Shown one piece after another: positions 2,915 through 55,761 of a stretch of 64,000 nucleotides of DNA; position 1 is the first letter of the stretch; each line of letters opens with the position of its first letter. Origin of the DNA: an uncultured Clostridia bacterium (GTDB taxonomy: Bacteria; Bacillota; Clostridia; TANB77; CAG-508); the NCBI GenBank assembly GCA_934130085.1, contig CAKOXK010000002.1, forward strand, positions 97,049 through 161,048, written 5' to 3'. The notes beneath the pieces were generated by a model. That model worked only from the letters and a program-made list of their open reading frames with translations, was not told where the DNA came from and searched no databases. A program made the translations under genes and the position numbers.

Positions 2915-3041
2915 AATATTATATTGCTCTCAAAGCCTTGTTCGTTTTTTTCTTCGTTAGACAAAAATTGACTGTCGGAAGAAAAAAACATTCGCGCTGC
3001 GCTTGATCGCTAACGCGGCTTTTCTCGAACAATATAATATT
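2915..3041. repeat. MITE/REP-like structured intergenic repeat, copy 1 (A orientation)
   Basis: Terminal inverted repeats 'aatattatattg...caatataatatt' extend to 'gttt.../...aaac'. The GC-rich interior has an 11-bp stem 'tttttttcttc/gaagaaaaaaa' and the conserved core 'cattcgcgctgcgcttgatcgctaacgcggc'. Homologous copies lie at 5479, 42872, 48647, 51042 and 55637. Confidence 0.85.
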
Positions 3042-3112
3042 AAACTCATAAAATTTGTATATTTATATTTTTATTGGAAATAGTATTATAAATTAATTTT
3101 TAGGAGGTTATT

Positions 3113-3322
3113 ATGGGAATTGAAAAACACATTCAAGTCACAGGTTCTTCAACAGTTTCTTGGAAAGATGCAATTATAAAAACTGTAGAAAAAGTTTCTC
3201 AAACTATTAATTATATCACTGCTATTAAAATTCTTGAGCAGCGTGCAAAAGTTACTGGAAATATAATGTCAGAATACTATGTTGATTTAGATATTACTTT
3301 TATGGTTGATCAAAATCAGTAA
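3113..3322 (+). CDS. Dodecin-family flavin-binding protein
   Basis: 69 aa preceded by the RBS 'taggagg'. The pattern 'IQVTGSST...AI...VE...I..I.A.KI.EQ....G.I..Y.VDLDITF' matches the dodecin fold consensus. Confidence 0.65.
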   Translation: MGIEKHIQVTGSSTVSWKDAIIKTVEKVSQTINYITAIKILEQRAKVTGNIMSEYYVDLDITFMVDQNQ

Positions 3323-3337
3323 AAGAAAGAAGGTTTT

Positions 3338-3781
3338 ATGGGTAAATCATCTACTCCGGTGGAGTATCAAGATTTTGTTAATAAAAAATCTCCTCCATCT
3401 AATGTTTTAAAAAACTGTTTTAATGCATTTGTTATCGGTGGTCTAATTTGTTCTATCGGACAACTAATTTATTTTTTCTGCAAATATAAAGGGCTTGATG
3501 ATATTTCTGCATCAACAGTCGTTTCAATTAGCTTAATTGGCATATCTGCATTTTTAACTTCTATAAATGTCTTTAATAAAATTGGTAAAATAGCTGGAGC
3601 AGGTTCTCTTGTACCTATTACCGGATTTGCAAATTCCATTGTAGCTCCTGCCATGGAATATAAGTCTGAAGGATATATTATGGGCGTTGGTGCAAAAATG
3701 TTTACTATTGCTGGACCTGTTCTTGTTTTTGGTATTTCAACATCCGTTATAGTCGGAATTATAGCTTGTTTGTTTCTTTAA
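3338..3781 (+). CDS. spoVAC: Stage V sporulation protein AC
   Basis: 147-aa polytopic membrane protein with 'GGLICSIGQ' and 'GSLVPITGFANS' motifs, first gene of a spoVAC-AD-AE run. Confidence 0.85.
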   Translation: MGKSSTPVEYQDFVNKKSPPSNVLKNCFNAFVIGGLICSIGQLIYFFCKYKGLDDISASTVVSISLIGISAFLTSINVFNKIGKIAGAGSLVPITGFANSIVAPAMEYKSEGYIMGVGAKMFTIAGPVLVFGISTSVIVGIIACLFL

Positions 3782-3871
3782 TACTGTTTCTAGAATTACT
3801 TTAATTTTTTTAATACCAGTTTAAGGCAATAAATAATAAAGCGATTATAAAAGAGAAAGGAATTTTATTTT

Positions 3872-5054: not shown

Positions 5055-5447
5055 ATGGAAAGTTATTTAAAATCAATTAACTGGCAGACGATGTTATTTG
5101 CATTTTTAGTTGGAGGAATCCTTTGTGTAATTGGTCAAATTTTAATAGATAAAACAAAACTTACTCCAGCAAGAATTCTTGTGATTTATGTAACAACCGG
5201 TGTTATTTTAGGAGCTCTTGGAATATACAAAAAATTAGTTGACATTGCAGGATGTGGAGCAACGGTTCCCTTAACTGGCTTCGGCTATAATTTGGCCAAA
5301 GGAACAATGGAAGCAGTAAAGGAACAGGGATTACTTGGAGCATTTATAGGTGGGGTCAAATCCTCTGCAGGTGGAATTGCAGCTGCTGTATTCTTCGGAT
5401 ATATTGCATCTCTTTTAGCGAAACCAAAAATCAAGAGTACAAAATAA
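5055..5447 (+). CDS. spoVAE: Stage V sporulation protein AE (SpoVAEb-type)
   Basis: 130-aa membrane protein with 'GGILCVIGQ' and 'GATVPLTGFG' motifs, paralogous to SpoVAC, immediately downstream of spoVAD. Confidence 0.85.
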   Translation: MESYLKSINWQTMLFAFLVGGILCVIGQILIDKTKLTPARILVIYVTTGVILGALGIYKKLVDIAGCGATVPLTGFGYNLAKGTMEAVKEQGLLGAFIGGVKSSAGGIAAAVFFGYIASLLAKPKIKSTK

Positions 5448-5478
5448 GACTACAAAATACTGATTACAAAAAAGATTT

Positions 5479-5603
5479 AATATTATGTTGTTCTCGAAGC
5501 CTTGTTCGTTTTTTTCTTCGTTAGTCAAACTTAACTTGCGGAAGAAAAAAACATTCGCGCTACGCTTGATCGCTAACGCGGCTTTTTCGAACAATATAAT
5601 ATT
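5479..5603. repeat. MITE/REP-like structured repeat, copy 2 (A orientation)
   Basis: Same TIRs and core as copy 1 ('...cattcgcgctacgcttgatcgctaacgcggc...'), with stem 'tttttttcttc/gaagaaaaaaa'. It sits between the convergent spoVAE and rplS 3' ends. Confidence 0.85.
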
Positions 5604-5801
5604 AAATCTTTTTATTTTAAAATCTTTATTTATTTTAAAATCTTTATTTATTTCAATATCCATATTAAAATAAATTTTTAGAATTATAATATTAATCCTC
5701 TAATGATTATATATTTAAATTCTAAGCATCAAAACATAACTATGCCAAAAAAAGAATATATATGCAATTATACTTAGCACATATATCCTTTTTTACATAC
5801 A

Positions 5802-6281
5802 TTATTCAGCTTTTGGAGCTTCTTCTTTAACTTCAGCATTTTCTACTGGAGTTTCAGCTGTTTCGTCTGCTGCTTTTACTTCTTCTACCTTTTCAGGAAT
5901 TTCTTCTTTGATAATGATATCATCTCTATTTAAGTTAGCTCCGATATCTTCCTTTGTCTTAGAAGCTTTTCCTACTCTATCTCTTAAATAATATAATTTA
6001 GCTCTTCTAACCTTTCCTACTCTTATTACTTCGATTTTTTCAACTAGTGGAGAGTGTAATAAGAATGTTTTTTCAACTCCTACTCCATAAGCTACTCTTC
6101 TAACAGTGAATGTTTCATTTAATCCACCATTTTGTTTTTTGATAATGATTCCTTCAAATACTTGGATTCTTTCTCTGTTTCCTTCTTTAATTCTTTGATG
6201 AACTCTTACTGTATCACCAACTTTAATATCAGGAACTTTGTTTTTTAATTGTTCATGTTCAATTGAATTAATAATATCCAT
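5802..6281 (-). CDS. rplS: 50S ribosomal protein L19 with ~40-aa acidic E/K/A-rich C-terminal extension
   Basis: The L19 core '[21 protein letters not shown]' is followed by a low-complexity tail '[34 protein letters not shown]'. Its start overlaps the trmD stop (ATGA). Confidence 0.9.
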
Positions 6282-12533: not shown

Positions 12534-13469
12534 TTAGTTCTTTATATTCTCAATCTCTTCCTTAGATAATGAAGTAATGTCTTGAATTTCTTCTACTGAG
12601 AAATTCTTTGCTAACATTCTCTTTACAATTTCTTGTTGTTTCTTCTTTTCTCCCAATATCTGCCCCTCTTTTAGACCCTCTCTTTTTCCATCTTCTAATG
12701 CATGAGTAATCGCATTCTTTTCATCCATTATTGCTTTTTCTCTTAATTCTGCTACTCTTCTTAACTCTTCTTGCTGACTTATTTCATCTAAGTTCTGCAT
12801 TGCTTCTTTTAATTCTTTATTGGTTTCCATTGCTTTAAAAACCTCCTCTTGATTAGGATTATCCAAAAACAATACCCACTGTGCCAATTCATTATTTGGC
12901 TCTCTCTCCAGTGTTTTCTTTGCCTTCGATATTTCAATTATATAAATCTGAAACATATCTGTCAATACTAAATTTAAGCCTGTGGTCACCTCTGTTATTT
13001 TCCATTCTGTACATATATTTTCTAGTGCTTTTGTCTTCTCTAATGGAAAATCTATTATTATTATTCCAATTACTTTGTTTAAATCCTGATAAATATTTCC
13101 TTTCTGTAATTGGCTCGAGTAAATTCTGCTCCAATAATACAAGAACCTAGCTTCTGTGTCTTGGTTATCAACTAATTGTATCTCTACATCACATATTCTA
13201 CCATCTCCTAATGTTGCTTTTAAATCCAAAATTCCTAACTTTTCTTCTGGATATTTACCAAAAACGTGCCTGTCATTATCAAGTTTTATATCATTTATTT
13301 TTTCTTTTATTACTGATGATATAAGTGCTTTGGTAATTCCTTCATTTCCCTCTCTAAATAATGAATGAAACACAACATCAATTTTCGGTTTTAATAGCTT
13401 TTCTTTGTTTTCTTTTTCACCTTCATTATTATTGTTTTTCTCTTTAGTTAGATTTTGTTTTTTGACCAT
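12534..13469 (-). CDS. Rpn-family recombination-promoting nuclease / putative transposase (PD-(D/E)XK, YhgA-like)
   Basis: 311 aa with 'IDVVFHSLF', 'LDLKATLGDGRICDVEIQ' and a C-terminal 'EGLKEGQILGEKKKQQEIVKRMLAKNFSVEEI' typical of the Rpn/TIGR01784 family. It borders the variable pilin-like locus. Confidence 0.7.
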   Translation of the reverse strand: MVKKQNLTKEKNNNNEGEKENKEKLLKPKIDVVFHSLFREGNEGITKALISSVIKEKINDIKLDNDRHVFGKYPEEKLGILDLKATLGDGRICDVEIQLVDNQDTEARFLYYWSRIYSSQLQKGNIYQDLNKVIGIIIIDFPLEKTKALENICTEWKITEVTTGLNLVLTDMFQIYIIEISKAKKTLEREPNNELAQWVLFLDNPNQEEVFKAMETNKELKEAMQNLDEISQQEELRRVAELREKAIMDEKNAITHALEDGKREGLKEGQILGEKKKQQEIVKRMLAKNFSVEEIQDITSLSKEEIENIKN

Positions 13470-14059: not shown

Positions 14060-14262
14060 TTAATTAATCTTTTAGATTAATTAAAAATTTATAAAAAATA
14101 AATACCATGAAAGCCTAGTAAAATCAACGCACAAAGCTATAGTATAAAAATCGTGTAATAAGAAAAAAAATTTAAAAATTTTTAAGTCAAAACTGTGATT
14201 TATTTACTGTAAGTAAGAGTAACGCGATTTTTACTTTTTAATTAATCTAAAAGCTTAATAAA
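14060..14262. promoter_or_regulatory. Invertible DNA element Inv1 (25-bp IRs flanking a ~153-bp segment), in FLIPPED orientation relative to Inv2-4
   Basis: Left IR 'ttaattaatcttttagattaattaa' (14060-14084) and right IR 'ttaattaatctaaaagcttaataaa' (14238-14262). The internal segment 14085-14237 is the reverse complement of the segments of Inv2, Inv3 and Inv4 (for example 'catgaaagcctagtaaaatcaacgc' versus 'gcgttgattttgcaaggctttcatg'). Confidence 0.8.
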
Positions 14263-14521: not shown

Positions 14522-15478
14522 CTATTTGTGTACAAGTCTTACAACACTTGATGAAACATGGTTTCCACATGTTACATACATAGAAGTTGAGGTCGCGCGA
14601 ACAAGATTTACACGCGCTTGTTGCCCTCCGGAATTACCACCTGTTCCCCACAATGAGGTTGCTCCTGATATAGACCATGCAATATTTCCATTAACATTAT
14701 TGCCAAGTCCAAAGCAAATATATAATTCACCAGGAATAGTAGTAATATACTGATTTGCCGATCCCACCCCTTGAATAGAAGTTATTGATCCTTCGGTTTT
14801 TCCATTATTATATCCATCTTTATATGAAGCACTATCGGTATTTACTCTACCATCAGCATCACTTACTCCCTTGTTATATGCGCCAGCTCCAGAAACATAT
14901 CCTTCTCCATTATGATACCCAGCTGGAATTTTAACATTTTCACTTCCAGTAGTAGATGCTGTCCACGCACCATTATTCTTCATGGTACCTGTTAGTCCTG
15001 TTTCAGATGCATTTGAAAATGTTGCTCCTTGAATTACTTGACTCTCTGTTGCATCTCCTGTTGCTCTCATTGCTTCTAGCTCCGCTACTTGCTGCTGTAG
15101 ATTCTCTATCTGTTTCTTTAATTTTTCTACCTCATCACTGCTTTCTGATGAACTACCTCCTCCTGTTGTTGAATTTCCACCAGTACTACCTCCTGAACTT
15201 GAACCTCCGTTTGAGGTAGCAGCTATCGCTTGCGTAATTTGATTCAATGTAAGTTGCTCTTGTAAGCTTGAATTTTGATATTGTTGTCCAGCATTTTTAG
15301 CCTGACCAACTATTCCTTTATCATCTAATGCAAGTTTTATTGTAATTCCTGAAAGAATTAGTAAAACAATAATTGTTATTACAAGTGATAATATAGTTAC
15401 ACCGGTTTCTCTCATTTCACGTTTTTTATAATGTTTTTGCTTTATGTTATTTACTTTTCTCATTCTTAATTTCTCCAT
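14522..15478 (-). CDS. Pilin-like surface protein (type-IV-pilin-like N-terminal hydrophobic segment lacking Glu5, G/S-rich linker, coiled coil, divergent C-terminal domain)
   Basis: The N-terminus is basic leader + 'ETG|VTILSLVITIIVLLILSGITIKLALDDKGIVGQAKNAG'. The first ~210 aa are shared with the next gene. The C-terminus ends 'VTCGNHVSSSVVRLVHK'. Inv2 lies 50 bp upstream. Confidence 0.65.
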   Translation of the reverse strand: MEKLRMRKVNNIKQKHYKKREMRETGVTILSLVITIIVLLILSGITIKLALDDKGIVGQAKNAGQQYQNSSLQEQLTLNQITQAIAATSNGGSSSGGSTGGNSTTGGGSSSESSDEVEKLKKQIENLQQQVAELEAMRATGDATESQVIQGATFSNASETGLTGTMKNNGAWTASTTGSENVKIPAGYHNGEGYVSGAGAYNKGVSDADGRVNTDSASYKDGYNNGKTEGSITSIQGVGSANQYITTIPGELYICFGLGNNVNGNIAWSISGATSLWGTGGNSGGQQARVNLVRATSTSMYVTCGNHVSSSVVRLVHK

Positions 15479-15528
15479 TATAATCCCTAAAAGCCTTAAA
15501 TTTATTGGTTTACACCATTTATCTAGTT

Positions 15529-15731: not shown

Positions 15732-15770
15732 AAATTTACCTTCATACTTCAAAAAGAGCCATATCATTTT

Positions 15771-42718: not shown

Positions 42719-42871
42719 TCAAATTTGCTTTCTTATTTTACTTTAAAATTAAGGCAATGTCAATAATTATGTAAATTTATTGGATGCAAGTGCGTGCAAA
42801 TTGCATTTAACTTTTTACTTGACGTTCAAATAATGTAGGTTATTAAATTCCAACAACCTAAAAAGCACTTT

Positions 42872-42996
42872 AATATTATATTGTTTTTCATGCCTTGTTC
42901 GTTTCTTTCTTCATTAGTCAAAATTGACTGTCGGAAGAAAGAAACATTCGCGCTTTGCTTGATCGCTAACGCGGCATTGAAAAACAATATAATATT
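42872..42996. repeat. MITE/REP-like structured repeat, copy 3 (A orientation)
   Basis: The TIRs are intact. The stem variant 'tttctttcttc/gaagaaagaaa' is a compensatory change relative to copy 1. Confidence 0.85.
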
Positions 42997-43039
42997 AAAG
43001 TTCTTTGTGTTCTATTTACCTTTATTTTAATGCTGCATA

Positions 43040-43855
43040 TTAACTGAACGTTTCAACCTCTACATTCAGTCTTCCGGATTTTGTTGTTCCTGTAATTTTT
43101 ATTATTCTAAATCTTCCTTTTCCTCTTACTGTGATAATATCATTTTCTTCAACTTTTTTGCTGTACGAAATTTCTTCTTTGAAATTAATAAATACACGCT
43201 CTTCATCTATAACTTTCTGAGCTTCGTTTCTTGATGAATGTATTATCTCCGCTACTATTGCATCAAGTCTCATTGCTGGAATATTTATTTTCATTATTTT
43301 TGTTTCAGGTTTTATGTAGCTTATACAATCCAATTCAATCTTTTCTATTTTAGCTTTTTGAAACCTAGTTAGCAATCTCAAATCATTTAGCAAAAATTTT
43401 TCAATTTCTTTTGCAATTATAATTTCAGCTCCATTATTAGTTACAATGATATCTCCTATCATCTCTCTTTTTATTCCTAATTTCATAAGTGCTCCAAGGT
43501 ATGTTTTATGTGTGTATTCTTCTTTTTGCCCTTTTGGAAGTGTTACTTTTATAACACTTATTATTTGATCATAAATTTCATTTCTAGATTTCAAATATGT
43601 ATACACTTCATCTGAATAAACAATTAGCATTTTTCTTTCTGCATCTTCCAATCCACCAAAAAATTCGTAGTTTTCAAAATGCTTTATTTTTAATATGTTA
43701 TCTATCTCATAAATTTGCGCCATGTTAAGAAACACAGTACTTTTGAATCCGCTTCTTTCTTTTACTGCTTTTACCTTGTCCATTACATTTGCAATTAAAA
43801 TTTTCTCTTCGTCTCTTTGTGCTTTTGATATTTCATTTAATTTATTCATAATCAA
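43040..43855 (-). CDS. YlmH-like S4-domain RNA-binding protein
   Basis: C-terminal S4 domain 'MRLDAIVAEIIHSSRNEAQKVIDEERVFINF', ~270 aa, YlmH architecture. Confidence 0.65.
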   Translation of the reverse strand: MIMNKLNEISKAQRDEEKILIANVMDKVKAVKERSGFKSTVFLNMAQIYEIDNILKIKHFENYEFFGGLEDAERKMLIVYSDEVYTYLKSRNEIYDQIISVIKVTLPKGQKEEYTHKTYLGALMKLGIKREMIGDIIVTNNGAEIIIAKEIEKFLLNDLRLLTRFQKAKIEKIELDCISYIKPETKIMKINIPAMRLDAIVAEIIHSSRNEAQKVIDEERVFINFKEEISYSKKVEENDIITVRGKGRFRIIKITGTTKSGRLNVEVETFS

Positions 43856-46026: not shown

Positions 46027-47355
46027 TTATATTTTTTCATATAATGATAATATTGTTTTTCTCGTTGGTTGCAATGCTGTATAATTTGCAATTACATATT
46101 TTTTTGTTTTGGTTTTATATAGTGAATTTACTGCGTCTTCTAAATTTATATAACTTTCAATGTTTTCACTTGGATAAAACGATGTTTTTATTCTTATTGC
46201 CATATCATAGGCTCTTTTGCCTGATGTTATTATTCTTGTAACTTTTTTTACATCAAAGTTAATATCCCATATCCATGATACATCAAAACCATCTGCTATA
46301 TTGTCATTTAACACAAATAGCAATTCTTTTTCATCATCATCCTCGTTTAGCATTCTTAAGCTTACATTTGCACCAGTTGGGTTTTTGGCTAAATTTATTA
46401 TAGTTTTAGAACCTTTAACATCTATCTCCTCGCATCTTCCATTATTTAATTTAAATTCTTTTAATGCTTTTCTTGGGTCAAGTGAATATAACTTCGCAAC
46501 TGCAATTACCGCTGCATAATTATAAACTGAATATATGCTATTTGCTGTTGTTTTAAGATGTGTTAATTCTTTTTTGTTTACTAAAACATCAAACTCACCT
46601 GTTTTTACATTCACATTCCTTAATTCCACAAATAAATCTTCCTTGCCAAATCCACATTTAGGACATTTAAACTTTCCAATGTGAGAATATTGATAATAAT
46701 CATACTTTAATCTTTCTTTATCAAATGGACAGAACTTACCCTCTCCTGCTTCTTTTTCTTCATCTGTTGCAAATTCATATCTATCTACACTAAAATATTT
46801 AACATTTTTATTATTTATATTAGCCTTTCCAAGCCTTGCAACATTTGGGTCATCTGCATTCAAAATCAAATTGCCATCATATATTTTTAAGAAGTCATTT
46901 ATTTTTAAAATTAGAGTTTCAACCTCTCCATTTCTATCAAGTTGATCTCTGAAAAAGTCAAGAATTACTAGTGTATCAAGCTTTATTTTCTTGAATATTA
47001 TTGGCACATAGCTTTCATCAACTTCTAGAGTAAGATAATCACAGTCAACATCTCCATTAATTTTCGAATGCTTTATAAGCTCAGAAATTATTCCAGTCTC
47101 CATGTTATTGCCGTCTGCATTTGAGACTACCTTCTTTCCATTTTGCTCAAGCATAAATTTTATGCAATTATTAGTTGTAGTTTTTCCATTAGTTGCAGTA
47201 ACCGCAATTACCTTTCCTTTGATATTAAAGTATTTAATAAAATTCTTATTTAACTTTTTAGCAATCTTACCGGGCAAATTTCCACCATTCTTTTTCAATA
47301 CCTTAGTTAAAATAAAATTAATAAATTTTGTTAGTATGATAATAAATCTATTCAT
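46027..47355 (-). CDS. murT: Lipid II isoglutamine synthase subunit MurT (Mur-ligase-like)
   Basis: 'VTATNGKTTT' P-loop, 'FFRDQLDRNGE', the Cys4 ribbon 'CPFDKE...CPKCG', and the C-terminal DUF1727 signature 'NLAKNPTGANVSL...NDNIADGFDVSWIWD'. No gatD is adjacent. Confidence 0.8.
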   Translation of the reverse strand: MNRFIIILTKFINFILTKVLKKNGGNLPGKIAKKLNKNFIKYFNIKGKVIAVTATNGKTTTNNCIKFMLEQNGKKVVSNADGNNMETGIISELIKHSKINGDVDCDYLTLEVDESYVPIIFKKIKLDTLVILDFFRDQLDRNGEVETLILKINDFLKIYDGNLILNADDPNVARLGKANINNKNVKYFSVDRYEFATDEEKEAGEGKFCPFDKERLKYDYYQYSHIGKFKCPKCGFGKEDLFVELRNVNVKTGEFDVLVNKKELTHLKTTANSIYSVYNYAAVIAVAKLYSLDPRKALKEFKLNNGRCEEIDVKGSKTIINLAKNPTGANVSLRMLNEDDDEKELLFVLNDNIADGFDVSWIWDINFDVKKVTRIITSGKRAYDMAIRIKTSFYPSENIESYINLEDAVNSLYKTKTKKYVIANYTALQPTRKTILSLYEKI

Positions 47356-48607
47356 TAATTAACTCCATTTCAGATACTAAATCTGATATATTTATTTGCT
47401 TTTTCTCTCCAGTTTGCATATTTTTTAATTCTACTTTATTAGATGCTATTTCATCATCACCTATTGTGATAATATATTTGGCCTTCTTCTTATCAGCATA
47501 CTTAAACTGAGCCTTTAAAGAACGTTCCATGATATCTTTTTCTGCATAAATATTACTTCTTCTTAACTCCTCAACTAGCTTTGTAGCATACTTATTTGCG
47601 CTCTCTCCAATATATGAGACAAACACATCAGGAGTCTTTTCAAGCTTCTCTTTTAACCCCTTATTAGCATTATCTAGAACTTGAATCAATCTCTCTTCAC
47701 CTGTAGCAAAACCAACCGCTGGAGTTTCTACTCCACCAAGCTCTTCAACTAAGCCATCATATCTACCACCACCTAAAACAGTTAAACCATCAATATCAGA
47801 TACAAACTCAAAAACTGTTTTAGTATAATAATCTAAACCTCTAACTATTGAAGAATCAATTTGATATTCAATATTTAAATCTCCTAAGCCCCTCTTAAAA
47901 TTCTCAAAATGCTCCTTACACTCATCACAAAGAAAATCTAAAATCTTTGGAGCACCCTCATTCAATCTCTTGCAACCTTCTTCCTTACAATCAAGAATTC
48001 TCATAGGATTCTTATCAAACCTTGTTTTACATGTATCACAATACTTATCAAGATTTGGTCTAATAAAATTTCTAAGAGCTTCTTGATACTCCTTTCTACA
48101 ATTTTTGCAACCAATTGAATTAATATTCAACGTAACATTACTAATATTCAATCTATCTAAAAACTGCTTTATCATTGAAATCATCTCAACATCAGCAAGA
48201 TAACTCTTACTTCCAATAAGTTCCGCACCTATTTGATGAAATTCTCTTTGTCTACCCTTTTGAACATTTTCGTATCTGTACATAGGCATTGTATAATATA
48301 ATTTCAAAGGTGAAGGTAAACTTGCCATACCATCTTCAATATACGCTCTTATAACACCTGCTGTGCCCTCAGGTCTAAGAGCAATACTTCTACCACCCTT
48401 ATCATTAAAAACATACATCTCTTTTTGAACTACATCAGTAGTCTCCCCAACACCTCTTTGAAATAAATCAGTACTTTCTATAACTGGAACCCTGATTTCA
48501 TTATAACCATAATTTTCAAATACAGTTTTTGCAGTATTTTCAACATATTGCCACTCTTTAACTTCATCAGGTAATATATCTTTAGTTCCTTTTAATCTTT
48601 GAATCAT
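47348..48607 (-). CDS. hisS: Histidine--tRNA ligase
   Basis: Start 'MIQRLKGTKDILP', motif 2 'YRYENVQKGRQREFHQIG', motif 3 'GGGRYDGL'. A Cys-rich insertion domain carries CxxC pairs. The track ORF extends upstream through MITE copy 4 and is trimmed to the canonical start. Confidence 0.85.
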   Translation of the reverse strand: MIQRLKGTKDILPDEVKEWQYVENTAKTVFENYGYNEIRVPVIESTDLFQRGVGETTDVVQKEMYVFNDKGGRSIALRPEGTAGVIRAYIEDGMASLPSPLKLYYTMPMYRYENVQKGRQREFHQIGAELIGSKSYLADVEMISMIKQFLDRLNISNVTLNINSIGCKNCRKEYQEALRNFIRPNLDKYCDTCKTRFDKNPMRILDCKEEGCKRLNEGAPKILDFLCDECKEHFENFKRGLGDLNIEYQIDSSIVRGLDYYTKTVFEFVSDIDGLTVLGGGRYDGLVEELGGVETPAVGFATGEERLIQVLDNANKGLKEKLEKTPDVFVSYIGESANKYATKLVEELRRSNIYAEKDIMERSLKAQFKYADKKKAKYIITIGDDEIASNKVELKNMQTGEKKQINISDLVSEMELINE

Positions 48608-48646
48608 AATATCTCCTTTCAAAAACAATTTAAATATTACAAATTT

Positions 48647-48778
48647 AATATTATGTTGTTTTTCGATGACTTGCTTACTGCAATCTTCGTTAGTCGACAT
48701 CAACTGTCGGAAGATTGCACCATTCGTGCTCGCTACGCTCACTTGATCGCTGCGCGTCATCTTAAACAATATAATGTT
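48647..48778. repeat. MITE/REP-like structured repeat, copy 4 (A orientation, hybrid variant)
   Basis: The TIR is 'aatattatgttg...caatataatgtt'. It carries the 'gcaatcttc/gaagattgc' stem variant otherwise seen in B-orientation copies. It lies immediately upstream of hisS. Confidence 0.8.
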
Positions 48779-48804
48779 AAATTTTCTTCACGGTTTCACA
48801 ATTT

Positions 48805-51006
48805 TTATTTTTTACGCTTAACATCATATACACTATCAATCTTTCCAAGTTCCCTCTGTGTTTTGGTCAAATCATTTATATTCTTAACTTCAATTGTCAT
48901 TTCAATTGTTGCAATCTTTTCTTTATTTGCTTTTGCTGAAACTGCAATCAATTTTGCAGATGATGTTGAAATTACATTTATTATATCCCCTAGCAAACCT
49001 TCTCTATCATTTGCAAATATTGTAATATCTACATTATATGAGGTATCTTTTTCAGTATCCCAATAACACTCTATTATTCTTCCTTCATCTTTTAACAAGT
49101 CTTTTACATTTTTGCAGTCTGTTCTATGTACTGTAACTCCTCTTCCTCTTGTTATATACCCAATTATATCATCGCCTTGAACTGGATTGCAGCATTTTGA
49201 TAATTTTATTAAGCAATTGTCTATTCCTTTAACAATTACTCCTGTTCTTGATGGTCTTCCATCATTCTTTTTCTCTTGTAGTTCCTCAATTTTTTCTTCT
49301 ACAACATTTTGCGTTTCTTTGTTGTATTTTCTGTATTCTTCTAATATTCTTGTTATTACTTTACCTGCTCCTATTGAGCCAAAGCCAACCGCTGCAAACA
49401 TATCATCAGATGTTTTGAAACTATATTTTTGAAATGCTGGTGCATAGTATTTTTCATTGAATAATTCATCATATTGCATTCCAATTCTTTTTATTTCTTT
49501 ATCAATTAGGTTTTTTCCTTTTTCAATATTCTCTTGTCTTTCTGTTTTCTTAAACCATTGTTGAATTTTAGTTTTAGCTTGTGTGCTTTTTACAAATTTA
49601 AGCCAATCTCTACTTGGTCCTTTGCTATTATCACTTGTTAATATTTCAACTATATCACCATTATTTAATTTTGTAATTATAGGCATCATTTTGCTATTGA
49701 TTTTTGCCCCTATCATTTTGTTTCCAATTTCAGCATGAATCATATAAGCAAAATCTATTGGTGTACTTCCTTTTGGTAATGTTTTTATTTCACCTTTTGG
49801 TGTAAATACATAAACTTCATCCTCAAAAAGCTCTGTTCTTAATGTTGCTAAGAACTCTTGTGGATCTTCAATATCTTTTTGCCACTCCAGGCTTTCTCTA
49901 AGCCAAGATAACTTGTCTTCTGTAACTACTACATTTTCCTTTTTTCCTCTTAAAAAACTTTGCTCCTTGTAAGCCCAATGTGCAGCAATACCATATTCGG
50001 CAATTCTGTGCATGTTATATGTACGAATTTGAACCTCAAATGGAGTTCCATTTTGTCCAATTAATGTGGTATGTAAAGATTGATACATATTAGGCTTTGG
50101 AACAGCTATATAATCTTTAAATCTACCAGGCATTGGAGTAAAAAGTTCATGCACAATACCAAGAGCTGCATAGCAATCTTTAACTGAATTTACTAGTATT
50201 CTAAGAGCAAATAAATCATAAATCTGATCTAGTGTTTTATTATCTCTTTGCATCTTTCTATAAATAGAATATAAATGCTTAGCCCTGCCTGTAACCTCCG
50301 CTACAATATGATTCTTTTTTAGTTGAGCTCTGATCTCATCCATAATCTCATCAATAAATTTAAGTCTCTGATCTCTCTTCTTATTAATTCCCTCAACAAT
50401 TTCTCTATAATCTTCAGGATATAAATATTTAAAAGATAAATCCTCAAGCTCCCATTTTAAAGAATACACTCCAAGTCTATTAGCAAGAGGAGCATAAAGC
50501 TCCAATGTTTCTTTAGCATTAGCAATCTGTCTATCTCTTGATAAATACCTCAAAGTTCTCATATTATGAAGTCTATCAGCTAATTTTATAAGAATAACAC
50601 GAATATCTTTGCCCATAGCAAGAAACATTTTTCTATAATTCTCAACTTGTTGCTCCTCAGCACTTACATAGTTAATCTTGCCAAGTTTAGTTACACCATT
50701 AACCATCTCGGCAATCTCTCTTGAAAACTCATTTGCAATGTCATCAATTGTAACATCAGTATCCTCTGCTAAATCATGCATTAAAGCAGCACAAATAGTT
50801 GCATCATCAAGCCCTAATGTTGATAAAATATATGCAACTTGAATAGGGTGAATTATATAAGGCTCTCCAGATTTTCTCTTCTGATCACCATGATGAGCGC
50901 AGGCATAATTATATGCTTTCTTAATGAGCTTTAAATCAGCCTTTTTATTATGTTTCTTAACCTCTTGCAAAACATCTTCAATTGTAACATCTTTAACCTC
51001 TGACAT
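48805..51006 (-). CDS. rel: Bifunctional (p)ppGpp synthetase/hydrolase Rel
   Basis: 733 aa with the HD domain 'HDLAEDT', the synthetase 'RAKHLYSIYRKM' region, and TGS and ACT domains. Confidence 0.92.
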   Translation of the reverse strand: MSEVKDVTIEDVLQEVKKHNKKADLKLIKKAYNYACAHHGDQKRKSGEPYIIHPIQVAYILSTLGLDDATICAALMHDLAEDTDVTIDDIANEFSREIAEMVNGVTKLGKINYVSAEEQQVENYRKMFLAMGKDIRVILIKLADRLHNMRTLRYLSRDRQIANAKETLELYAPLANRLGVYSLKWELEDLSFKYLYPEDYREIVEGINKKRDQRLKFIDEIMDEIRAQLKKNHIVAEVTGRAKHLYSIYRKMQRDNKTLDQIYDLFALRILVNSVKDCYAALGIVHELFTPMPGRFKDYIAVPKPNMYQSLHTTLIGQNGTPFEVQIRTYNMHRIAEYGIAAHWAYKEQSFLRGKKENVVVTEDKLSWLRESLEWQKDIEDPQEFLATLRTELFEDEVYVFTPKGEIKTLPKGSTPIDFAYMIHAEIGNKMIGAKINSKMMPIITKLNNGDIVEILTSDNSKGPSRDWLKFVKSTQAKTKIQQWFKKTERQENIEKGKNLIDKEIKRIGMQYDELFNEKYYAPAFQKYSFKTSDDMFAAVGFGSIGAGKVITRILEEYRKYNKETQNVVEEKIEELQEKKNDGRPSRTGVIVKGIDNCLIKLSKCCNPVQGDDIIGYITRGRGVTVHRTDCKNVKDLLKDEGRIIECYWDTEKDTSYNVDITIFANDREGLLGDIINVISTSSAKLIAVSAKANKEKIATIEMTIEVKNINDLTKTQRELGKIDSVYDVKRKK

Positions 51007-51041
51007 AACAAATCCTTTCTATATCCTTTCTATATATATTA

Positions 51042-51166
51042 AATATTATATTGTTTGAGAAATCCGCGCAGCGATCAAGCGTAGCGCGAATGGTGCAATC
51101 TTCCGAAAGTTAGTATTGACTAACGAAGATTGCAGCGAGCAAGGATTCGAAAAACAATATAATATT
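51042..51166. repeat. MITE/REP-like structured repeat, copy 5 (B orientation)
   Basis: It reads as the reverse complement of the A copies ('...ccgcgcagcgatcaagcgtagcgcgaatggtgcaatcttccg...cgaagattgcagcgagcaagg...'). A truncated half-copy follows at 51183-51240, overlapping the recJ 3' end. Confidence 0.85.
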
Positions 51167-51237
51167 TAATATTAATTAATTCATATTGTTTCGGAAAGCC
51201 GCGTAGCTTACATGCGAAGTGCGAATGGTGCAATCTT

Positions 51238-52986
51238 CTAATCCTCCACCGCTTTTCTCATATCCTTCAAACTTATCTGTACTTTTTCTGTATTGTTAAA
51301 CTTATTTATTTCTATATTTCCAACCACATCTACTCTATCCCCAATTTGGTAACATTTTGAGTATTCTCCCATGTTAAATCCTATTGCATCAAGGTTTATA
51401 TTATCATCTTGCAAATTAAGTTTTATATGTTTTCCTTCTGACAATGCCCTTATTGATGTGATTTTCAAATTTTTATATATAATATTTATTTTTTTGTTGC
51501 CTTCTCCATAAGGTTCTAATATTTCTAGTTCCTTAATTGAATCTATTCTTATATCATTTTTATCAATTTCTTTATCAATTTCAATTTCTTTTTGTAGCAT
51601 TTGGCTCGTTATGTGTTCTTCAGCATATTGTTCGAATTTTTGTTTGAATTCTTCAAATTTTGATGTTTCTAAACTTAAGCCTATTGCCATACTATGTCCA
51701 CCTGCATTTTCAAGCAAATCATTTAATTTTAAAAGTGCTTCATGTAAATCAAAACCTTTGATGCTTCTGCCTGAACCTCTTGAGTCTTTTCCCTCAAAAC
51801 ATACTAGTATACTTGGTTTGTAGTATTTTTCTGTGATTTTTGATGAAACTATTCCTATTATTCCATGATGCCATTTTTCTTTGCCTAGCACTATGCAAGG
51901 CTTGTCATTTTCATGGTTTAATGCTATTTCTTCTTCCGCCTCATTGAAAATTCTTTTTTCAATTGCTTGACGTTCTTTATTGTAGTCATCAAGTTTTTTT
52001 GCTAGCTTACGTGCTTTGATTATATCATTTGTTAAAAACAAATTAAGTGCATCTTCTTGGTGTCCCATTCTTCCGCATGCGTTGATTCTTGGTGATATTC
52101 CGAATGATATTGTTTCAGCATCTATTTTTTTAAATCCTGCTAATCTTAGAAGTTCTCTTAATCCGATGTTTTTGGTTTGGTTTACTAATAGTAAGCCAAG
52201 CTTTGCAATTGTTCTATTTTCATCAACTAATGGAACTATATCCGAAATTGTTCCTATGCAAGCTATATCAATGTATTTTAAGTATTCGTTTTCATTAATA
52301 TTTAATCTTTTTGCTAGTGCTTGTGTTAATTTAAATGCCACTCCGCATCCAGCCAATTCTCTAAATTCATATTGACTATCACTTCTCTTGCAATCAACAA
52401 CTGCAATTGCTTGTGGCAATTTTTCTCCTGGTTCATGGTGGTCTGTTATAATAACATCAATTTTAAGCTCTTTTGCCAGCTCTACCTCCTCAACTGATGT
52501 AATTCCACAATCAACTGTAATTATTAAATTATACCCTTCACTTGCAATTTTCTTGACCGCTTCTTTGTTTAAGCCATATCCCTCTGATAATCTATTTGGA
52601 ATATATACAGAAACATCAACCCCTAAATCTTCAAAGAATCTCTTTAAAATTGTTGAGCTTGTTATTCCGTCTGCATCATAATCACCATAAACTATGATTT
52701 TTTCTTTGTTGTCAATTGCTTTTATAATTCTATCAATACATTTTGGCATATCTGGCATTTGAAAAGGATCTCTGAAATCGCTTCTTTTTGGGTTTAAAAA
52801 TCTTTCGATTTCTTCATCAGATTTAAAGTTTTTTTTGGCTAATATTTCCGATGCTAAATCATGAAGTCCAAATTTTTCTTTTATATGTTCTTTTTCATTT
52901 ATTAATTTTTCTTGTTCTTCTTTTTCTTTCCAGATACTCTTCATAAAACTCCTTACGCTAATACTTTTACTTTGTAAAAAATGCAC
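51238..52986 (-). CDS. recJ: Single-stranded-DNA-specific exonuclease RecJ
   Basis: DHH motifs 'VYGDYDADGITS', 'VDCG', 'ITDHHEP', and a DHHA1 domain 'GGGHSMAIG'. The true start may be the internal Met near 52944. Confidence 0.9.
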   Translation of the reverse strand: MHFLQSKSISVRSFMKSIWKEKEEQEKLINEKEHIKEKFGLHDLASEILAKKNFKSDEEIERFLNPKRSDFRDPFQMPDMPKCIDRIIKAIDNKEKIIVYGDYDADGITSSTILKRFFEDLGVDVSVYIPNRLSEGYGLNKEAVKKIASEGYNLIITVDCGITSVEEVELAKELKIDVIITDHHEPGEKLPQAIAVVDCKRSDSQYEFRELAGCGVAFKLTQALAKRLNINENEYLKYIDIACIGTISDIVPLVDENRTIAKLGLLLVNQTKNIGLRELLRLAGFKKIDAETISFGISPRINACGRMGHQEDALNLFLTNDIIKARKLAKKLDDYNKERQAIEKRIFNEAEEEIALNHENDKPCIVLGKEKWHHGIIGIVSSKITEKYYKPSILVCFEGKDSRGSGRSIKGFDLHEALLKLNDLLENAGGHSMAIGLSLETSKFEEFKQKFEQYAEEHITSQMLQKEIEIDKEIDKNDIRIDSIKELEILEPYGEGNKKINIIYKNLKITSIRALSEGKHIKLNLQDDNINLDAIGFNMGEYSKCYQIGDRVDVVGNIEINKFNNTEKVQISLKDMRKAVED

Positions 52987-53235
52987 TTGTCATATTTATA
53001 AATGAATACAAAATTCCAACATAGTTTACATCCTTTTTATAGTATATTTTTCCGATAAAAAATAAATGTATTGCCAGTATTTTATACCTTTTCAGAGTAT
53101 TTGGCAATACACTTGTTCAAAAAAAGTTTCAAGTGAGTTACAAATGATTTTAGTCAATAACTATCTTCTACCTTTTCAATTCACATTAGAGTTTATTACA
53201 AAATTATTCATAATGAGCAACATTTGACTTTACTT

Positions 53236-53849
53236 AAAATAGATTCAAGGTATCATCTTCTGTTACCCCTTTTAGATTATAGTATGTTTCTGGTATGTCT
53301 CCTACTATTACTGATTCTGCTAGAAGCACTTCTGTTGTGACTTCATCATCTGTATCTTTATATGGGGTAATTACACTCATGTTGCAGTGTATATTTAAAT
53401 AAATTTTATGTAATGATTGATTTATTCCGAACTTCAGTAAGCTCAGATTTTACGCTGGTTTGAACAGCTCCCATTGTTGTAATTTTTACATGTATTTTGG
53501 GACCTCTACCTGCTAATATTTTGTTACCAGTTAAGCTTCCAAGACTTATGCTTACCGTGTCTTTCTCATTATTTTTTAGGTCTTGTTGCATTTTTAGAGC
53601 AATTTTTGATGATATGTTATTAACAGTTATTACATTTAAATTTAGCATTTTGATGTTTCCATCACTATCTTTTTCAATATTACACAAGTCCTCGTATTTT
53701 ACACCTTGCATTGCTTCCTTCATTGCTTCATTTGAGATTCTCTCAGCAAGTGATTTTGCAATTACTCTTGATTGCCTTTCCAACGTTGGATTTATTGAGT
53801 TTATAATTGTAATTGCTGTTATATATGCAATTACAATTACTACAAGCAT
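53236..53849 (-). pseudogene. Sporulation protein YunB-like, apparent frameshift near 53411-53440
   Basis: The N-terminal 147-aa ORF has a TM segment and 'IAKSLAERISNEAMKEAMQ...LNLNVITVNNISSKIALKMQQDL'. The C-terminal continuation 'FGINQSLHKIYLNIHCNMSVITPYKDTDDEV...GDIPETYYNLKGVTEDDT*' is open only in the +1 frame. Confidence 0.5.
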
Positions 53850-54018
53850 CAGATAAAATATTAGTCTTTTTTTATTTACAATACAACATTTTCTTCCGTA
53901 TGCCTCTGTTTTGATTTTGAAAGTTTGGTCTTACTATTTTAATTTTTGGAATTCTAAACCTTGAGTAGATTTTATCCATACACGCACTCCATTTTAGTTT
54001 TAACCATCTAATAATCTT

Positions 54019-55539
54019 TTAACTAATTATAAATAACTGCATGCCACTTTGTATTTTATCATCTTCCATATTATTTATTTCTTTTATATTGTTTACAGTA
54101 CTTCTAAAGTTCTTTGCAATATTCCAAAGTGTATCTCCATCCTTCGTGAAATAAATAACCATATTTGCTCTTTTTTTACTATCTTCTTTGCTTTCTTCAA
54201 TACTATCAATTAATCTGATATTTGTTATGTTTGTTGTACTTGCAATAAATACTATGTCTACTTTAAAATCTATCTCCCCTCCAGGAAGAATGTTATAATT
54301 TTCATTAATTACATATTGATTTAATGATACTCCAGTTTTGGGCGTTACATCTTTTGCGGCCATTTTGTACACAAATGGAATACTAACATTTTTTATTTTC
54401 ATAGATGTATTTTCCTCATTCGTAAGCATTATTGCAAATTCAGCATTTCCACTTATTGCAATGCTTCCATCTTCGTTTCTTATACTATTTGTTAATACAT
54501 TAGATTGAATATCAATTACTCTTTCATTTGTAATTCCAATATTTTGCTTCTCACTAAAATTAAATGTTGCTCTGTACTCACTCTTGCTTGAGATTGCAGT
54601 TATACTCTTCTGCTTAAAAGCAAGGTTTCTACTAGGACTATACAAATCTTCTATCACATTTATAGTTTTACTTTGATACGCTGTAACTTTTATTCCAATT
54701 TCAAAGTTAACTGATATACTATGGTCTTCGCGGTTTTGTGATGGTTTTAGTACCATATTTCTTATTTCAATCTCACTATGGCAAAAACTATCATCACTTA
54801 TATCTTTCATATCAACAAATCCCATAATAGGAAATGATTTTTTAATTATTCCCACTCTTCCATCTTCAGTTAGATATACTAATTTTAAATTTAAATCTGC
54901 CTTAGTTAAGACCTTATTATAACTTATTTTGTTTTCTGTTGATGAAAATGTGGTTGATACTTTCAAAATTTCTGCTAAATCATCTGAAGGATCAATCGAA
55001 ACTTTCTCATTTACACTTGTTTTTGTTTCTGCACTTCCTATTACAGATTTTACGCTTAAACTCTTCTCCATTTTTTGTATATCAGGTAATTTTACATTAT
55101 TTACATATTCCTCATTACTATTTGAAAATACCTTAACATTGTAACTTACACTAGCCTTGATACTTATTTTTCTTTCATTTATAATCTTGCAATCTATGCT
55201 TTGAAGAGTGACGATTGTTGATTCCATCATTTCACTTTTAGCACCATCAAGTTGAATTATCTCAGAAAAATCAAGCGTATGATTTATACTCCTTACAGAT
55301 TTTTTCTTATCTTCTTCACCATAGTACATAATATAAGCCTGAATAGATCCATCTACTCTAATTTTGCCGTCAGACAACTCTTTTTTGTAAATATTAATTA
55401 CTCCTGATGTTCCAACAATCTCTAGAATATCAGGCTTCACATCAGGAACAATACAATCAGAATCCACCGTATCTGTTAAACTCTTTTGTGCAATTATTTG
55501 ATTTATATTTAAACTGCCTTTTTCAAGCTCTATTGCCAT
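54019..55539 (-). CDS. SipL/SpoVID-like spore coat morphogenetic protein (DUF3794 repeats + C-terminal LysM)
   Basis: The C-terminal 'MVIYFTKDGDTLWNIAKNFRSTVNNIKEINNMEDDKIQSGMQLFI' is a LysM domain. The N-terminal ~450 aa resemble DUF3794/SPOCS. The start is placed at 'MAIELEKG'; the upstream ORF extension runs into MITE copy 6. Confidence 0.55.
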   Translation of the reverse strand: MAIELEKGSLNINQIIAQKSLTDTVDSDCIVPDVKPDILEIVGTSGVINIYKKELSDGKIRVDGSIQAYIMYYGEEDKKKSVRSINHTLDFSEIIQLDGAKSEMMESTIVTLQSIDCKIINERKISIKASVSYNVKVFSNSNEEYVNNVKLPDIQKMEKSLSVKSVIGSAETKTSVNEKVSIDPSDDLAEILKVSTTFSSTENKISYNKVLTKADLNLKLVYLTEDGRVGIIKKSFPIMGFVDMKDISDDSFCHSEIEIRNMVLKPSQNREDHSISVNFEIGIKVTAYQSKTINVIEDLYSPSRNLAFKQKSITAISSKSEYRATFNFSEKQNIGITNERVIDIQSNVLTNSIRNEDGSIAISGNAEFAIMLTNEENTSMKIKNVSIPFVYKMAAKDVTPKTGVSLNQYVINENYNILPGGEIDFKVDIVFIASTTNITNIRLIDSIEESKEDSKKRANMVIYFTKDGDTLWNIAKNFRSTVNNIKEINNMEDDKIQSGMQLFIIS

Positions 55540-55636
55540 ATTAAAAATCCTCCCACTAAGCTTTTTGTTTAATTTTATGATGGAGGGGTTCAATATATTC
55601 ATGAAATGCAGCAAAATTGATTAGAAAAAAAACTTT

Positions 55637-55761
55637 AATATTATATTGTTTAAGAAAGTCGCGCAGCGATCAAGCGAAGCGCGAATGGTGCAATCTTCCG
55701 AAAGTTAGTATTGACTAACGAAGATTGCAGCGAGCAAGGCTTCGAAAAACAATATAATATT
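55637..55761. repeat. MITE/REP-like structured repeat, copy 6 (B orientation)
   Basis: Near-identical to copy 5. Confidence 0.85.

Follow-up and report, generated by a model that had tools for sequence, protein, structure and literature searches.

A probable family of MITE-like foldback repeats, with in-place inversion between strains, in operon spacers of uncultured gut Clostridia

Correia elements form a sequence family with a Neisseria-type 26-bp repeat, a TA duplication and an IHF site. ERIC, RUP, BOX and the bcr1-type repeats are predicted to form stable RNA or DNA hairpins with compensated stem changes, and effects on mRNA stability have been proposed for them. REP/REPIN sequences are 20-40-bp GC-containing palindromes with a GTAG/CGTC tag, conserved arms, a variable spacer and a RAYT gene. 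Correia elements show presence/absence between strains. They are reported to invert in place and to be cut by RNase III (PMC10969869; PMC2649163). Inverton families with one common repeat motif exist, and the median is 3 invertons per Clostridia genome (PMC11892184). Finally, template switching between inverted-repeat arms leads to arm homogenisation and spacer inversion, and such hairpin-associated inversions are recurrent and reversible among close relatives (PMC8604942).

The window, the whole 64-kb stretch of DNA analysed here, comes from an uncultured human-gut Clostridia species whose RelA is 84% identical to that of Clostridium sp. CAG:793. It contains a non-coding repeat in six full copies of 131-138 bp and a single half copy (Table 1). 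This agrees with the first-pass annotation, which had reported six copies and a half copy at 51183, all intergenic; the placement was confirmed for every copy. The spacers that host them are unrelated, and the placement is dispersed. Density is 6.5 copies per 64 kb in the window and 0 in a further 13.6 kb. With up to 2 mismatches allowed, the 14-nt word of the terminal inverted repeat (TIR) gave 18 matches (7.65 +/- 3.3 in shuffles); those with 0-1 mismatch number 12 and coincide exactly with the 12 element ends. The 24-nt core was found 5 times with up to 3 mismatches, against 0 expected. The longest coding potential is the sole ATG-initiated frame, with 7 codons and not conserved. What the half copy retains is the P2 3' half, a variant core (CGCATGTAAGCT) and a right arm that carries 9 inserted nt, and it overlaps with the recJ stop codon (51238-51240) at its inner end.

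Table 1. Repeat copies in the window and example parts of copy c6.
Feature	Position	Strand	Score or basis	Neighbours or remark
c1, 133 bp, T-rich P2 hairpin type	2912..3044	+	132 bits	ruvA (2167-2757, -) and dodecin/spoVAC operon (+)
c2, 131 bp	5476..5606	+	145 bits	convergent spoVAE (5055-5447, +) and rplS (5802-6281, -)
c3, 131 bp	42869..42999	+	141 bits	miaB-like radical-SAM gene (41324-42703, -) and ylmH-like (43040-43849, -)
c4, 138 bp	48644..48781	+	130 bits	hisS (47348-48607, -) and relA (48805-51006, -)
c5, 131 bp	51039..51169	-	156 bits	relA and recJ (51238-52986, -)
Half copy (right half)	about 51170..51240	-		abuts c5 copy at 51039
c6, 131 bp	55634..55764	-	155.5 bits	sipL (54019-55539, -) and veg (55934-56233, -)
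Outer TIR, example TTTAATATTATATTGTT (c6)	55634..55650		TIR word search	partner 55748-55764
Asymmetric GC-rich core, example CCATTCGCGCTTCGCTTGATCGCTGCGCG (c6)	55660..55688	-	cross-species conserved part	
Variable internal hairpin P2, example TGCAATCTTC ... GAAGATTGCA (c6)	55689..55729	-	helix 4: 9/10 pairs changed both sides	

Each copy has AT-rich TIRs of 17-19 bp, continued by imperfect inner arms, around an asymmetric interior in which a CTTGYTCGC box is accompanied by a variable hairpin and a GC-rich core. Identity among the six copies is 94-96% in the outer 15 nt, compared with 61-80% in the remaining element, and a 17-nt TIR is found at 12 of 12 ends with 0-1 mismatch. Perfect TIRs, previously described for all copies, are present in four of the six (14-nt TIRs); single TIR mismatches lie in the left arms of c1 and c2 and in both arms of c4. 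The pairing of "ttgttcg" with "cgaacaa" that was thought to link the ends occurs in c1 and c2 only, where cgaacaa has a competing partner in the left arm. The "ttt/aaa" extensions do exist, but they belong to the inverted repeat. Both sides have changed together in c5 (TTAAA...TTTAA), which indicates an inverted repeat and no direct target duplication. The suggested TT/AA target-site duplication could not be demonstrated at any copy: the flanks prolong the palindrome with A-runs and T-runs, the terminal TTTAA/TTAAA is inverted and not direct, and a palindromic TA or TTAA duplication would be indistinguishable from the TIR.

The core repeats the CTTGYTCGC box, in the form CCATTCGCGCTTCG-CTTGATCGC-TRCGCG, and the box upstream of P2 is a degenerate copy. 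Three to five AGCG/GAGC units make up the core, with one extra in 139-nt variants and an additional 8-nt CGCT-type unit in c4, and in the predicted fold CTTGATCGC is the loop between CGCG stems. These three features (box copy, units and loop) are what would be expected if the core, with its CGCT/GAGC-type repeats and CTTGAT in a CGCG-stem loop, were an iteron/nick region for a Rep/HUH-family nuclease. The element would then move or resolve as a folded single strand, and its two orientations would come from hairpin resolution, as in the flip/flop of parvovirus terminal hairpins. The likeness is to the GAGC repeats and CTTGAT motif of rolling-circle origins, which we take to be Rep-binding and nick sites, respectively. 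However, none of the DNA examined showed an HUH gene, and the known HUH transposons (IS200/IS605, IS91) have, to our knowledge, no long terminal inverted repeats. Furthermore, the core variant CATGTAAGCT, found in the half copy and, in different strains, at the loci of c1 and c5, destroys CTTGAT and yet persists at several loci. We give this reading very little credence.

Related copies are present in at least five rabbit-gut Clostridia MAGs, which are species separate from the host. In these the AT-rich arms vary from copy to copy yet remain complementary (Lapin-028__bin79 has six copies with six different arm sequences), and the GC-rich asymmetric core CCATTCGCGCTTCGCTTGATCGCTRCGCG is almost invariant between species. 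This invariance hints at sequence-specific recognition by a protein, which may be a mobilising enzyme or a host factor. Neutral palindrome dynamics leave unexplained a 29-nt unpaired core that is near-identical between human-gut and rabbit-gut copies with diverged arms and hairpin. The spacers of the related copies include rplI|dnaB|tilS, ftsZ|spoIIGA (two in tandem), pflB|pflA and murC|spoIVB.

REP/REPIN sequences were rejected as a class for the element. The arms are AT-only, no GTAG/CGTC tag and no Y1 transposase were seen, and the variation of arms around a conserved interior across species is the reverse of the REP pattern.

In a sister species (RelA 89% identity), the syntenic veg-sipL-recJ-relA-hisS spacers are without the element and tight, with 13 bp between recJ and relA and 51 bp between relA and hisS. 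The element model found no match in six overlapping sister-species contigs of this region (7.7-21.8 kb each), and c4 is missing from the syntenic relA-hisS spacer in the sister species (L047). Element-free spacers in the sister species suggest that the copies were recently gained or lost. This presence/absence at orthologous sites would support mobility, on a comparison of two species. Within the species, no clean empty site was found among conspecific contigs; every "empty" conspecific allele is a short-direct-repeat deletion or a single-arm remnant.

Strains of the species differ by in-place flips of the interior and by arms overwritten with each other's complement. This was seen in assembled conspecific metagenome contigs of 98-99% identity, with 97.9-99.9% in the flanking genes. 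At three loci (c1, c2 and c6) the interior is reverse-complemented in place between co-linear and unchanged flanks. The inverted interiors are 97-98% identical as reverse complement (101/103, 99/101 and 98/101 positions) versus 42-51% as read (43-52 positions), and they keep their locus-specific loop sequences. The c1 copy is inverted in L055 and L059, which have common flank SNPs, so that its orientation tracks strain relatedness. The c2 copy is inverted in L055 and L057 and was lost by short-direct-repeat deletions in L056, L058 and L059. As for c6, it is inverted in L064; in L061, L063, L066 and L067 its right arm has been replaced by the left arm's complement, and in L060 it is reduced to a single arm. 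A second haplotype of the c5 spacer (L060, L063, L066, L067) carries a 139-nt copy in opposite orientation. The c4 copy is truncated in L072, an arm mismatch is turned into G:C in L054, and c3 has the same orientation in the few near-identical contigs at hand. At c2, the mismatch at TIR position 12 has moved from one arm to the other, which places the crossover within the outermost 11-15 nt. The element is found flipped in about as many strains as is a classic-looking inverton of these same genomes (flipped in 1/4 contigs), so an enzyme could be responsible.

Both orientations at the same inverted-repeat-bounded locus (c1, c2, c6) are also the mark of an inverton. In such a reading, a site-specific invertase acts on the conserved outer inverted repeats, and interior flips switch an orientation-dependent operon signal (a terminator/attenuator, an RNA-processing site or a protein-binding site) upstream of spoVA, sipL, relA, hisS, spoIIGA and others, with phase-variable modulation as the proposed consequence. 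The three in-place inversions and the opposite-orientation copy at a fourth locus, with flanks and outer repeats unchanged, are consistent with it, as are the position of the c2 crossover and the outer repeats being the most conserved part in this genome. Upstream of surface-protein genes, the same genome has a further inverton family of classic appearance that also flips between strains, so an active invertase is likely present. In addition, c1- and c2-type copies have a T-run after the closing helix (GGCTTTTTT) in one orientation only.

On the other hand, the inverted repeats of the element are unrelated to the classic-inverton repeats. A recombinase gene is absent from the window, where a domain scan of 50 proteins gave none, and from the sides of the related copies. 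Consensus scans of every copy, which are weak tests, found neither a sigma-70-like promoter nor a canonical terminator inside, in either orientation. The c1 inversion, following strain relatedness, looks rare and not like rapid switching. The same sites also show rewritten arms and deletions, a sign of non-enzymatic palindrome instability, and the six different arm sequences in Lapin-028__bin79 fit poorly with one repeat-specific enzyme. Dispersed invertons of this kind are thus unlikely. We consider it rather improbable that the repeats are a mobile mini-inverton family, with ~130-bp copies in perhaps dozens of operon spacers flipped by a recombinase or HUH-type enzyme that recognises arms and core. 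If true, a transposable element would double as genome-wide orientation-dependent switches, including at sporulation and stringent-response genes, and enzyme-driven flips would link transposable elements to phase variation.

Compensatory changes in the internal stem had been noted at the outset, and the changes quoted are indeed present in the copies. Pairing also held in a larger alignment of 36 distinct copies, where 95.9% of cells are paired (41-51% in slid controls) and double changes occur in 37 of 44 pairs. The first-pass annotation took the covariation between copies to argue for selection on an RNA or ssDNA structure, a conclusion that fails in view of in-place inversion, arm rewriting, equal G:T and A:C mismatches and the two orientations. 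Stem mismatches are without strand bias (26 G:T versus 25 A:C, two constant predicted T:G pairs excluded), and relative to transcription there are 9 sense versus 5 antisense copies. Inversion and arm rewriting are DNA-level processes, so "compensatory" changes arise without selection. They probably come from palindrome dynamics at the DNA level and not from a selected RNA fold.

A structured RNA would be a small RNA or a cis-regulatory one with selection on its fold (closing helix P1, hairpin P2 and conserved core), the copies being duplicates of a useful module. Arguments for it are the very strong covariation and an unpaired core that is conserved while its closing stem varies freely, which is the pattern of many RNA motifs. 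The copies also sit in transcribed operon spacers and fold far more stably than shuffles (z-scores -4.4 to -10.4). However, either strand folds about equally well, both orientations occur, and switch, relative to the same flanking genes, and G:U is not in excess over A:C. A perfect AT helix of 17-30 bp is typical of foldback DNA repeats, not of aptamers or ribozymes. Rfam 15 at gathering thresholds gave 3 tRNAs only in the window, and with E relaxed to 10 no overlap in the window or in contig L032 accounts for the element. We regard a structured RNA as very unlikely. Searches of plasmid, phage and viral sequences gave no match to the element either.

Our preferred reading, at a probability of roughly 60%, is a previously undescribed family of small non-coding foldback (MITE-like) repeats in which pairing is kept by inverted-repeat homogenisation and inversion. 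The copies are below about 300 bp, have no coding capacity, carry common TIRs, are multiple and dispersed, and show presence/absence polymorphism. The original comparison with MITE, ERIC and RUP repeats is borne out to this extent: the repeat is dispersed, non-coding, TIR-bearing and located in operon spacers. A cognate transposase, another of the early proposals, was found neither in the window nor beside 14 related copies; the sole transposase-like gene in the window (PDDEXK_2, 12534-13469) does not have the TIR on its flanks.

The copies of this MITE-like family would have spread by transposition, with an enzyme acting in trans; that the outer arms are the best-conserved part within the genome is expected of an enzyme-binding end. 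After insertion, the long palindrome would evolve by inverted-repeat-mediated template switching or recombination, which may both invert the spacer and homogenise the arms. Stems would stay paired through that process and not through selection on one RNA strand. Judging by analogy, any effect on the host is most likely through a ~60-bp hairpin co-transcribed into operon mRNAs, which could bring RNase III processing or altered mRNA stability, as in Correia and ERIC.

These observations define a repeat family in a poorly known lineage of uncultured gut Clostridia. Through flips, arm conversions and deletions it generates structural polymorphism within core operons, recJ-relA-hisS and spoVA among them, and it could act as a strain marker and cause assembly breaks. 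The observations also show that inverted-repeat homogenisation and spacer inversion can give a multicopy palindromic repeat strong "covariation", a caution that such a signal is no proof of selected RNA structure. The invariant core offers a practical starting point in the search for the protein recognising it.

Among known systems, invertons (those flipped by RecV in Clostridioides difficile and the Bacteroides promoter invertons) share with the element a segment of about 100-200 bp, inverted repeats of 17-30 bp, both orientations at one locus and a position just upstream of genes. In contrast to the element, known invertons are few per Clostridia genome and do not occur as one sequence dispersed over housekeeping operons; they contain a promoter or terminator and need an invertase, none of which was found in the scans of copies and window proteins.

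ERIC, RUP, BOX and the bcr1-type repeats of the Bacillus cereus group are likewise imperfect palindromic intergenic repeats of about 100-160 bp in either orientation. The element differs from them in having no detected similarity to Rfam, plasmids or phages. Target duplications are defined for RUP and bcr1 (TA, TTTAT), and none can be defined here. We know of no documented in-place inversion between strains for these repeats, as documented here.

Spacer inversion with arm homogenisation is also seen in hairpin-associated small inversions and quasipalindrome template switching, in chloroplast non-coding DNA, yeast and E. coli, and this precedent matches the three change types at the present loci. 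Its events involve spacers of a few bases and arms >9 bp (PMC8604942), compared with a spacer of about 95 bp and arms of 17-30 bp here, and the present substrate is a mobile multicopy element.

Lastly, the nearest known behaviour, on the best reading, is that of the Correia elements (CREE/NEMIS) of Neisseria, which are unrelated in sequence and phylum and are set side by side on behaviour only. Correia elements have a TA duplication, an IHF site, outward promoters and RNase III cleavage, whereas consensus scans found no promoter in the present element, and it is the core rather than the arms that is conserved across species here. Both are non-coding repeats of about 100-155 bp with long TIRs around a conserved core, present in many intergenic copies that are often co-transcribed with their neighbours, able to form a long hairpin and inverting in place.

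The element, a repeat of about 131 bp with AT-rich arms, an internal hairpin and a GC-rich core, is a dispersed non-coding foldback repeat. Six full copies (c1 to c6, in coordinate order) and one half copy were found where the first-pass annotation had placed them, and all six full copies lie, as it had claimed, in spacers between genes. Its description of the terminal inverted repeats as perfect holds for four copies and fails for the other two. The pairing 'ttgttcg/cgaacaa', offered as general, is present in c1 and c2 only, and 'ttt/aaa', taken for an added extension, is part of the inverted repeat itself.

Within the window, the 14-nt end word matches at 12 places with 0-1 mismatch, precisely the 12 ends of the element copies, and at 18 places with up to two mismatches, against 7.65 expected. 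The 24-nt core has five matches at up to three mismatches, with 0 expected. Both strands fold much better than shuffled sequences (z from -4.4 to -10.4), and the RNAalifold consensus of the six copies contains 44 pairs, with double changes in 11. Copies of this genome share 94-96% identity over the outermost 15 nt of their arms and 61-80% over the rest of the element. The 13.6 kb past the window ends contain no additional copy.

Copies of the element and other features of the window (window positions)
Feature	Position	Strand	Location or content
Element copy c1	2912-3044	+	spacer ruvA/dodecin-spoVAC
Element copy c2	5476-5606	+	spacer spoVAE/rplS
Element copy c3	42869-42999	+	spacer ylmH/miaB-like
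Element copy c4	48644-48781	+	spacer relA/hisS
Element copy c5	51039-51169	-	spacer recJ/relA
Right-half element copy	~51170-51240		directly adjoins c5
Element copy c6	55634-55764	-	spacer veg/sipL
Polymorphic spacer	5447-5802		spoVAE/rplS
Inverton-like copy	14060-14262
Inverton-like copy	15529-15731
Inverton-like copy	19300-19501
Inverton-like copy	60421-60623
Inverton-like lone arm	21919-21945
Promoter-like site	60561-60589	+
Tandem paralogous genes	14522-16925; 17009-24329		without Pfam match
LRR_5/HhH-GPD block	57496-60885		two LRR_5 genes and an HhH-GPD glycosylase gene
Direct repeats bounding the block	57496-57749; 60632-60885		254 bp, 95% identical
PD-(D/E)XK nuclease-family 'transposase'	12534-13469	-	PF12784, E 1.7e-44
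Three ORFs	31922-35027		Pfam-less
ADP-ribosyltransferase exoenzyme-like protein and Fic/DOC protein	35057-37354	-	484 aa and 265 aa
Two tRNA genes	37650-37819		adjoin the preceding pair
Alanyl-tRNA-synthetase-like protein	39453-41222	-	589 aa; class II core and SAD domain
Long AT-rich hairpin	55811-55877		just downstream of veg

Rfam 15 at gathering thresholds returned only three tRNAs over the whole window, and at permissive E-values up to 10 nothing that accounts for the element in two copies. BLASTN against plasmids and phages gave no match to it, nor did a pattern scan of viral contigs. In a pattern search over one genome per GTDB species, true copies were limited to uncultured Clostridia MAGs of five MAG species (four rabbit-gut 'Lapin' MAGs and E13__bin84), the other 32 matches being rejected as chance, mostly in unrelated, chiefly high-GC genomes. 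The metagenome scan added a single true copy, on the JGI metagenome contig L044. The window organism is a human-gut species whose RelA shares 84% identity with the protein of Clostridium sp. CAG:793, and many contigs from gut metagenomes (Hadza, Nepal and others) encode identical SpoVAC and Veg proteins. Metagenomes containing the species include ERZ27287188, ERZ27287198, ERZ28753917 and SRR30770041.

In the other species the element measures 92-123 bp and is located in housekeeping-operon spacers: rplI/dnaB/tilS, ftsZ/spoIIGA (two in tandem), pflB/pflA, murC/spoIVB and next to rpsI. The tandem copies, in rabbit-gut MAG Lapin-028__bin79 (contig L026, 1371-1597), are 17 bp apart, with the internal hairpin much reduced in the second. 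The AT-rich arms of these species differ from copy to copy, even inside one MAG, but pair in every case. Their internal hairpin varies or is missing, while CCATTCGCGCTTCGCTTGATCGCTRCGCG and an upstream CCTTGYTG box are almost invariant, and the copy on contig L019 has the core without long arms. This conservation pattern is opposite to that of the window genome, where the outer arms are most alike. For host-species divergence, tblastn with the window proteins revealed no orthologues in common at the MAG loci, and tblastx also gave nothing.

Conspecific contigs (L053, L055, L057, L062, L064 and others), 97.9-99.9% identical in the flanking genes, carry the element at the same spacers, and its orientation is not always the same. 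At c1, the interiors of L057 and L055 agree at 101 of 103 positions as reverse complement and at 43 of 103 as read; the corresponding values are 99/101 and 46/101 at c2 (L053 and L057), and 98/101 and 52/101 at c6 (L062 and L064). Outer arms and flanks stay unchanged in all three cases. Since the flipped interiors retain their locus-specific loops, the interiors were truly inverted in situ and not exchanged for another copy, which rules out ectopic gene conversion at c1, c2 and c6. Such conversion is possible for the second haplotype of the recJ/relA spacer, where the two haplotypes carry copies of opposite orientation and different subtype. At c2, a G/A mismatch at arm position 12 switches sides together with the interior, which places the crossover within the outermost 11-15 nt. 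No orientation polymorphism was seen at c3 and c4, compared among near-identical strains only.

The conservative flips and conserved arms would also suit dispersed invertons, and a separate, classic-looking inverton family in the same genome likewise flips between strains. However, a search of 50 window proteins, with a reading of the flanking ORFs of 14 related copies, found no recombinase or transposase except an unrelated PDDEXK_2 gene, promoter and terminator scans around all copies found neither inside the element, and c1 orientation tracks strain relatedness. We regard invertons as unlikely. The PDDEXK_2 gene (PF12784) is the sole transposase-like gene in the window and lacks flanking element terminal repeats.

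The second, unrelated inverted-repeat family has the look of a classic promoter inverton, with 27-bp repeats (TTAATTAAGCTTTTAGATTAATTAAAA) and a 149-bp interior. Each copy is found directly upstream of minus-strand genes encoding BspA-type LRR proteins or Pfam-less paralogues, the one at 14060 in opposite orientation to the others, and in conspecific L063 the copy at the LRR gene is inverted with respect to that gene. In the window, the promoter-like site is directed away from the LRR genes. Two of the tandem paralogous genes encode proteins of 318 and 333 aa, and three, 76-94% identical in DNA, encode proteins of 740-769 aa; as inverton-like repeats separate the genes, their products are likely variable surface proteins. 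In L062 and L063 (1519-4254) the arrangement of the LRR_5/HhH-GPD block, including its order with respect to the M23 peptidase gene, is not that of the window, L060 and L064.

Elsewhere in the window, the genes for the ADP-ribosyltransferase exoenzyme-like and Fic/DOC proteins, flanked by the two tRNA genes and, on the other side, by the three Pfam-less ORFs, may form a small island of toxins or effectors. The hairpin downstream of veg is probably the veg terminator; its two arms change together between strains (e.g. L064), and no loop flip was seen in the eight contigs examined. Its weak matches to plant and animal microRNA models were rejected as chance. A typical bacterial AlaRS is longer than the alanyl-tRNA-synthetase-like protein of the window, of which a 583-aa version was called on contig L074.

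Inversion is one of several changes at these loci, and the element is structurally unstable, with flips, arm rewriting and deletions. At c6, L061, L063, L066 and L067 carry, in place of the original right arm, a sequence exactly complementary to the left arm (GCAAGGCTTCGAAAAACAAT), and in L054 the mismatched arm position is now G:C across both arms. A multi-base core variant, CATGTAAGCT replacing CTTGATCGCT, is shared by the half copy and, in different strains, by c1 and c5. Deletion between short direct repeats has removed c2 in L056, L058 and L059 and cut c6 to one arm in L060, and c4 is truncated in L072. Polymorphism of the spoVAE/rplS spacer extends beyond the element: a 280-bp stretch, made of the element and an AT-rich tract that contains tandem TTTTAAAATCTTTATTTA units, is missing in L056 and L059 by deletion between AAAAAAGA direct repeats, and in L055 another sequence follows the element on its downstream side.

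These shorter conspecific alleles were considered as empty sites showing target duplication and rejected, being direct-repeat deletions (bounded by AAAAAAGA, TTTA or GTTTTT) or single-arm remnants. Between species, the element is differentially present. In a sister species (89% identity in RelA) the genes follow one another as in the window, veg-sipL-yunB-recJ-relA-hisS-murT, and the spacers measure 13 bp (recJ-relA) and 51 bp (relA-hisS). The element model found no match in its six overlapping contigs of the region (7.7-21.8 kb each), where the window carries 3.5 copies in the corresponding stretch. Divergence of the sister-species spacers was too great to map target sites to the base.

As for the covariation, 95.9% of cells are paired across 36 distinct copies, in an alignment fitted to the model, with both-side changes in 37 of 44 pairs; slid controls reach 41-51%. 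The pairing that the first-pass annotation described is real, but its inference of a selected RNA or ssDNA fold is not supported, given the arm rewriting and spacer inversion observed. Template switching between the arms of an inverted repeat is known to produce both (PMC8604942). Seen directly here, the two processes yield compensated changes without selection, which argues against selection on an RNA fold. Furthermore, stem mismatches are symmetric (26 G:T and 25 A:C, two constant predicted T:G pairs set aside), and nine copies are sense and five antisense to the surrounding genes, with changes between strains; symmetry and both orientations argue against a one-strand RNA. A selected structured RNA is very improbable. 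In multicopy palindromic DNA, covariation does not count as evidence for an RNA structure, and the element is useful as a warning of this.

In the core are two CTTGNTCGC boxes and a series of CGCT units, extended by one unit in the 138-139-nt variants. The core's invariance across species while unpaired points to recognition by a sequence-specific protein. An HUH-type single-strand hairpin element, suggested by a possible likeness between the core and the GAGC repeats bound by Rep proteins and CTTGAT nick sites, is the least probable reading.

For the foldback repeat, we infer a spread by enzyme-mediated transposition, which arm conservation within the genome fits. After insertion, the palindrome would evolve by inverted-repeat-mediated inversion and homogenisation. 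Any effect on the host would come through the long hairpin in operon transcripts, by analogy with Correia and ERIC elements (PMC10969869; PMC2649163).

Lastly, among known systems the element behaves most like the Correia element of Neisseria. Both have terminal repeats, a conserved core and an intergenic location. Correia elements are co-transcribed, and in-place inversion has been reported for them, as seen at these loci, but the two differ in sequence, host phylum and documented features.
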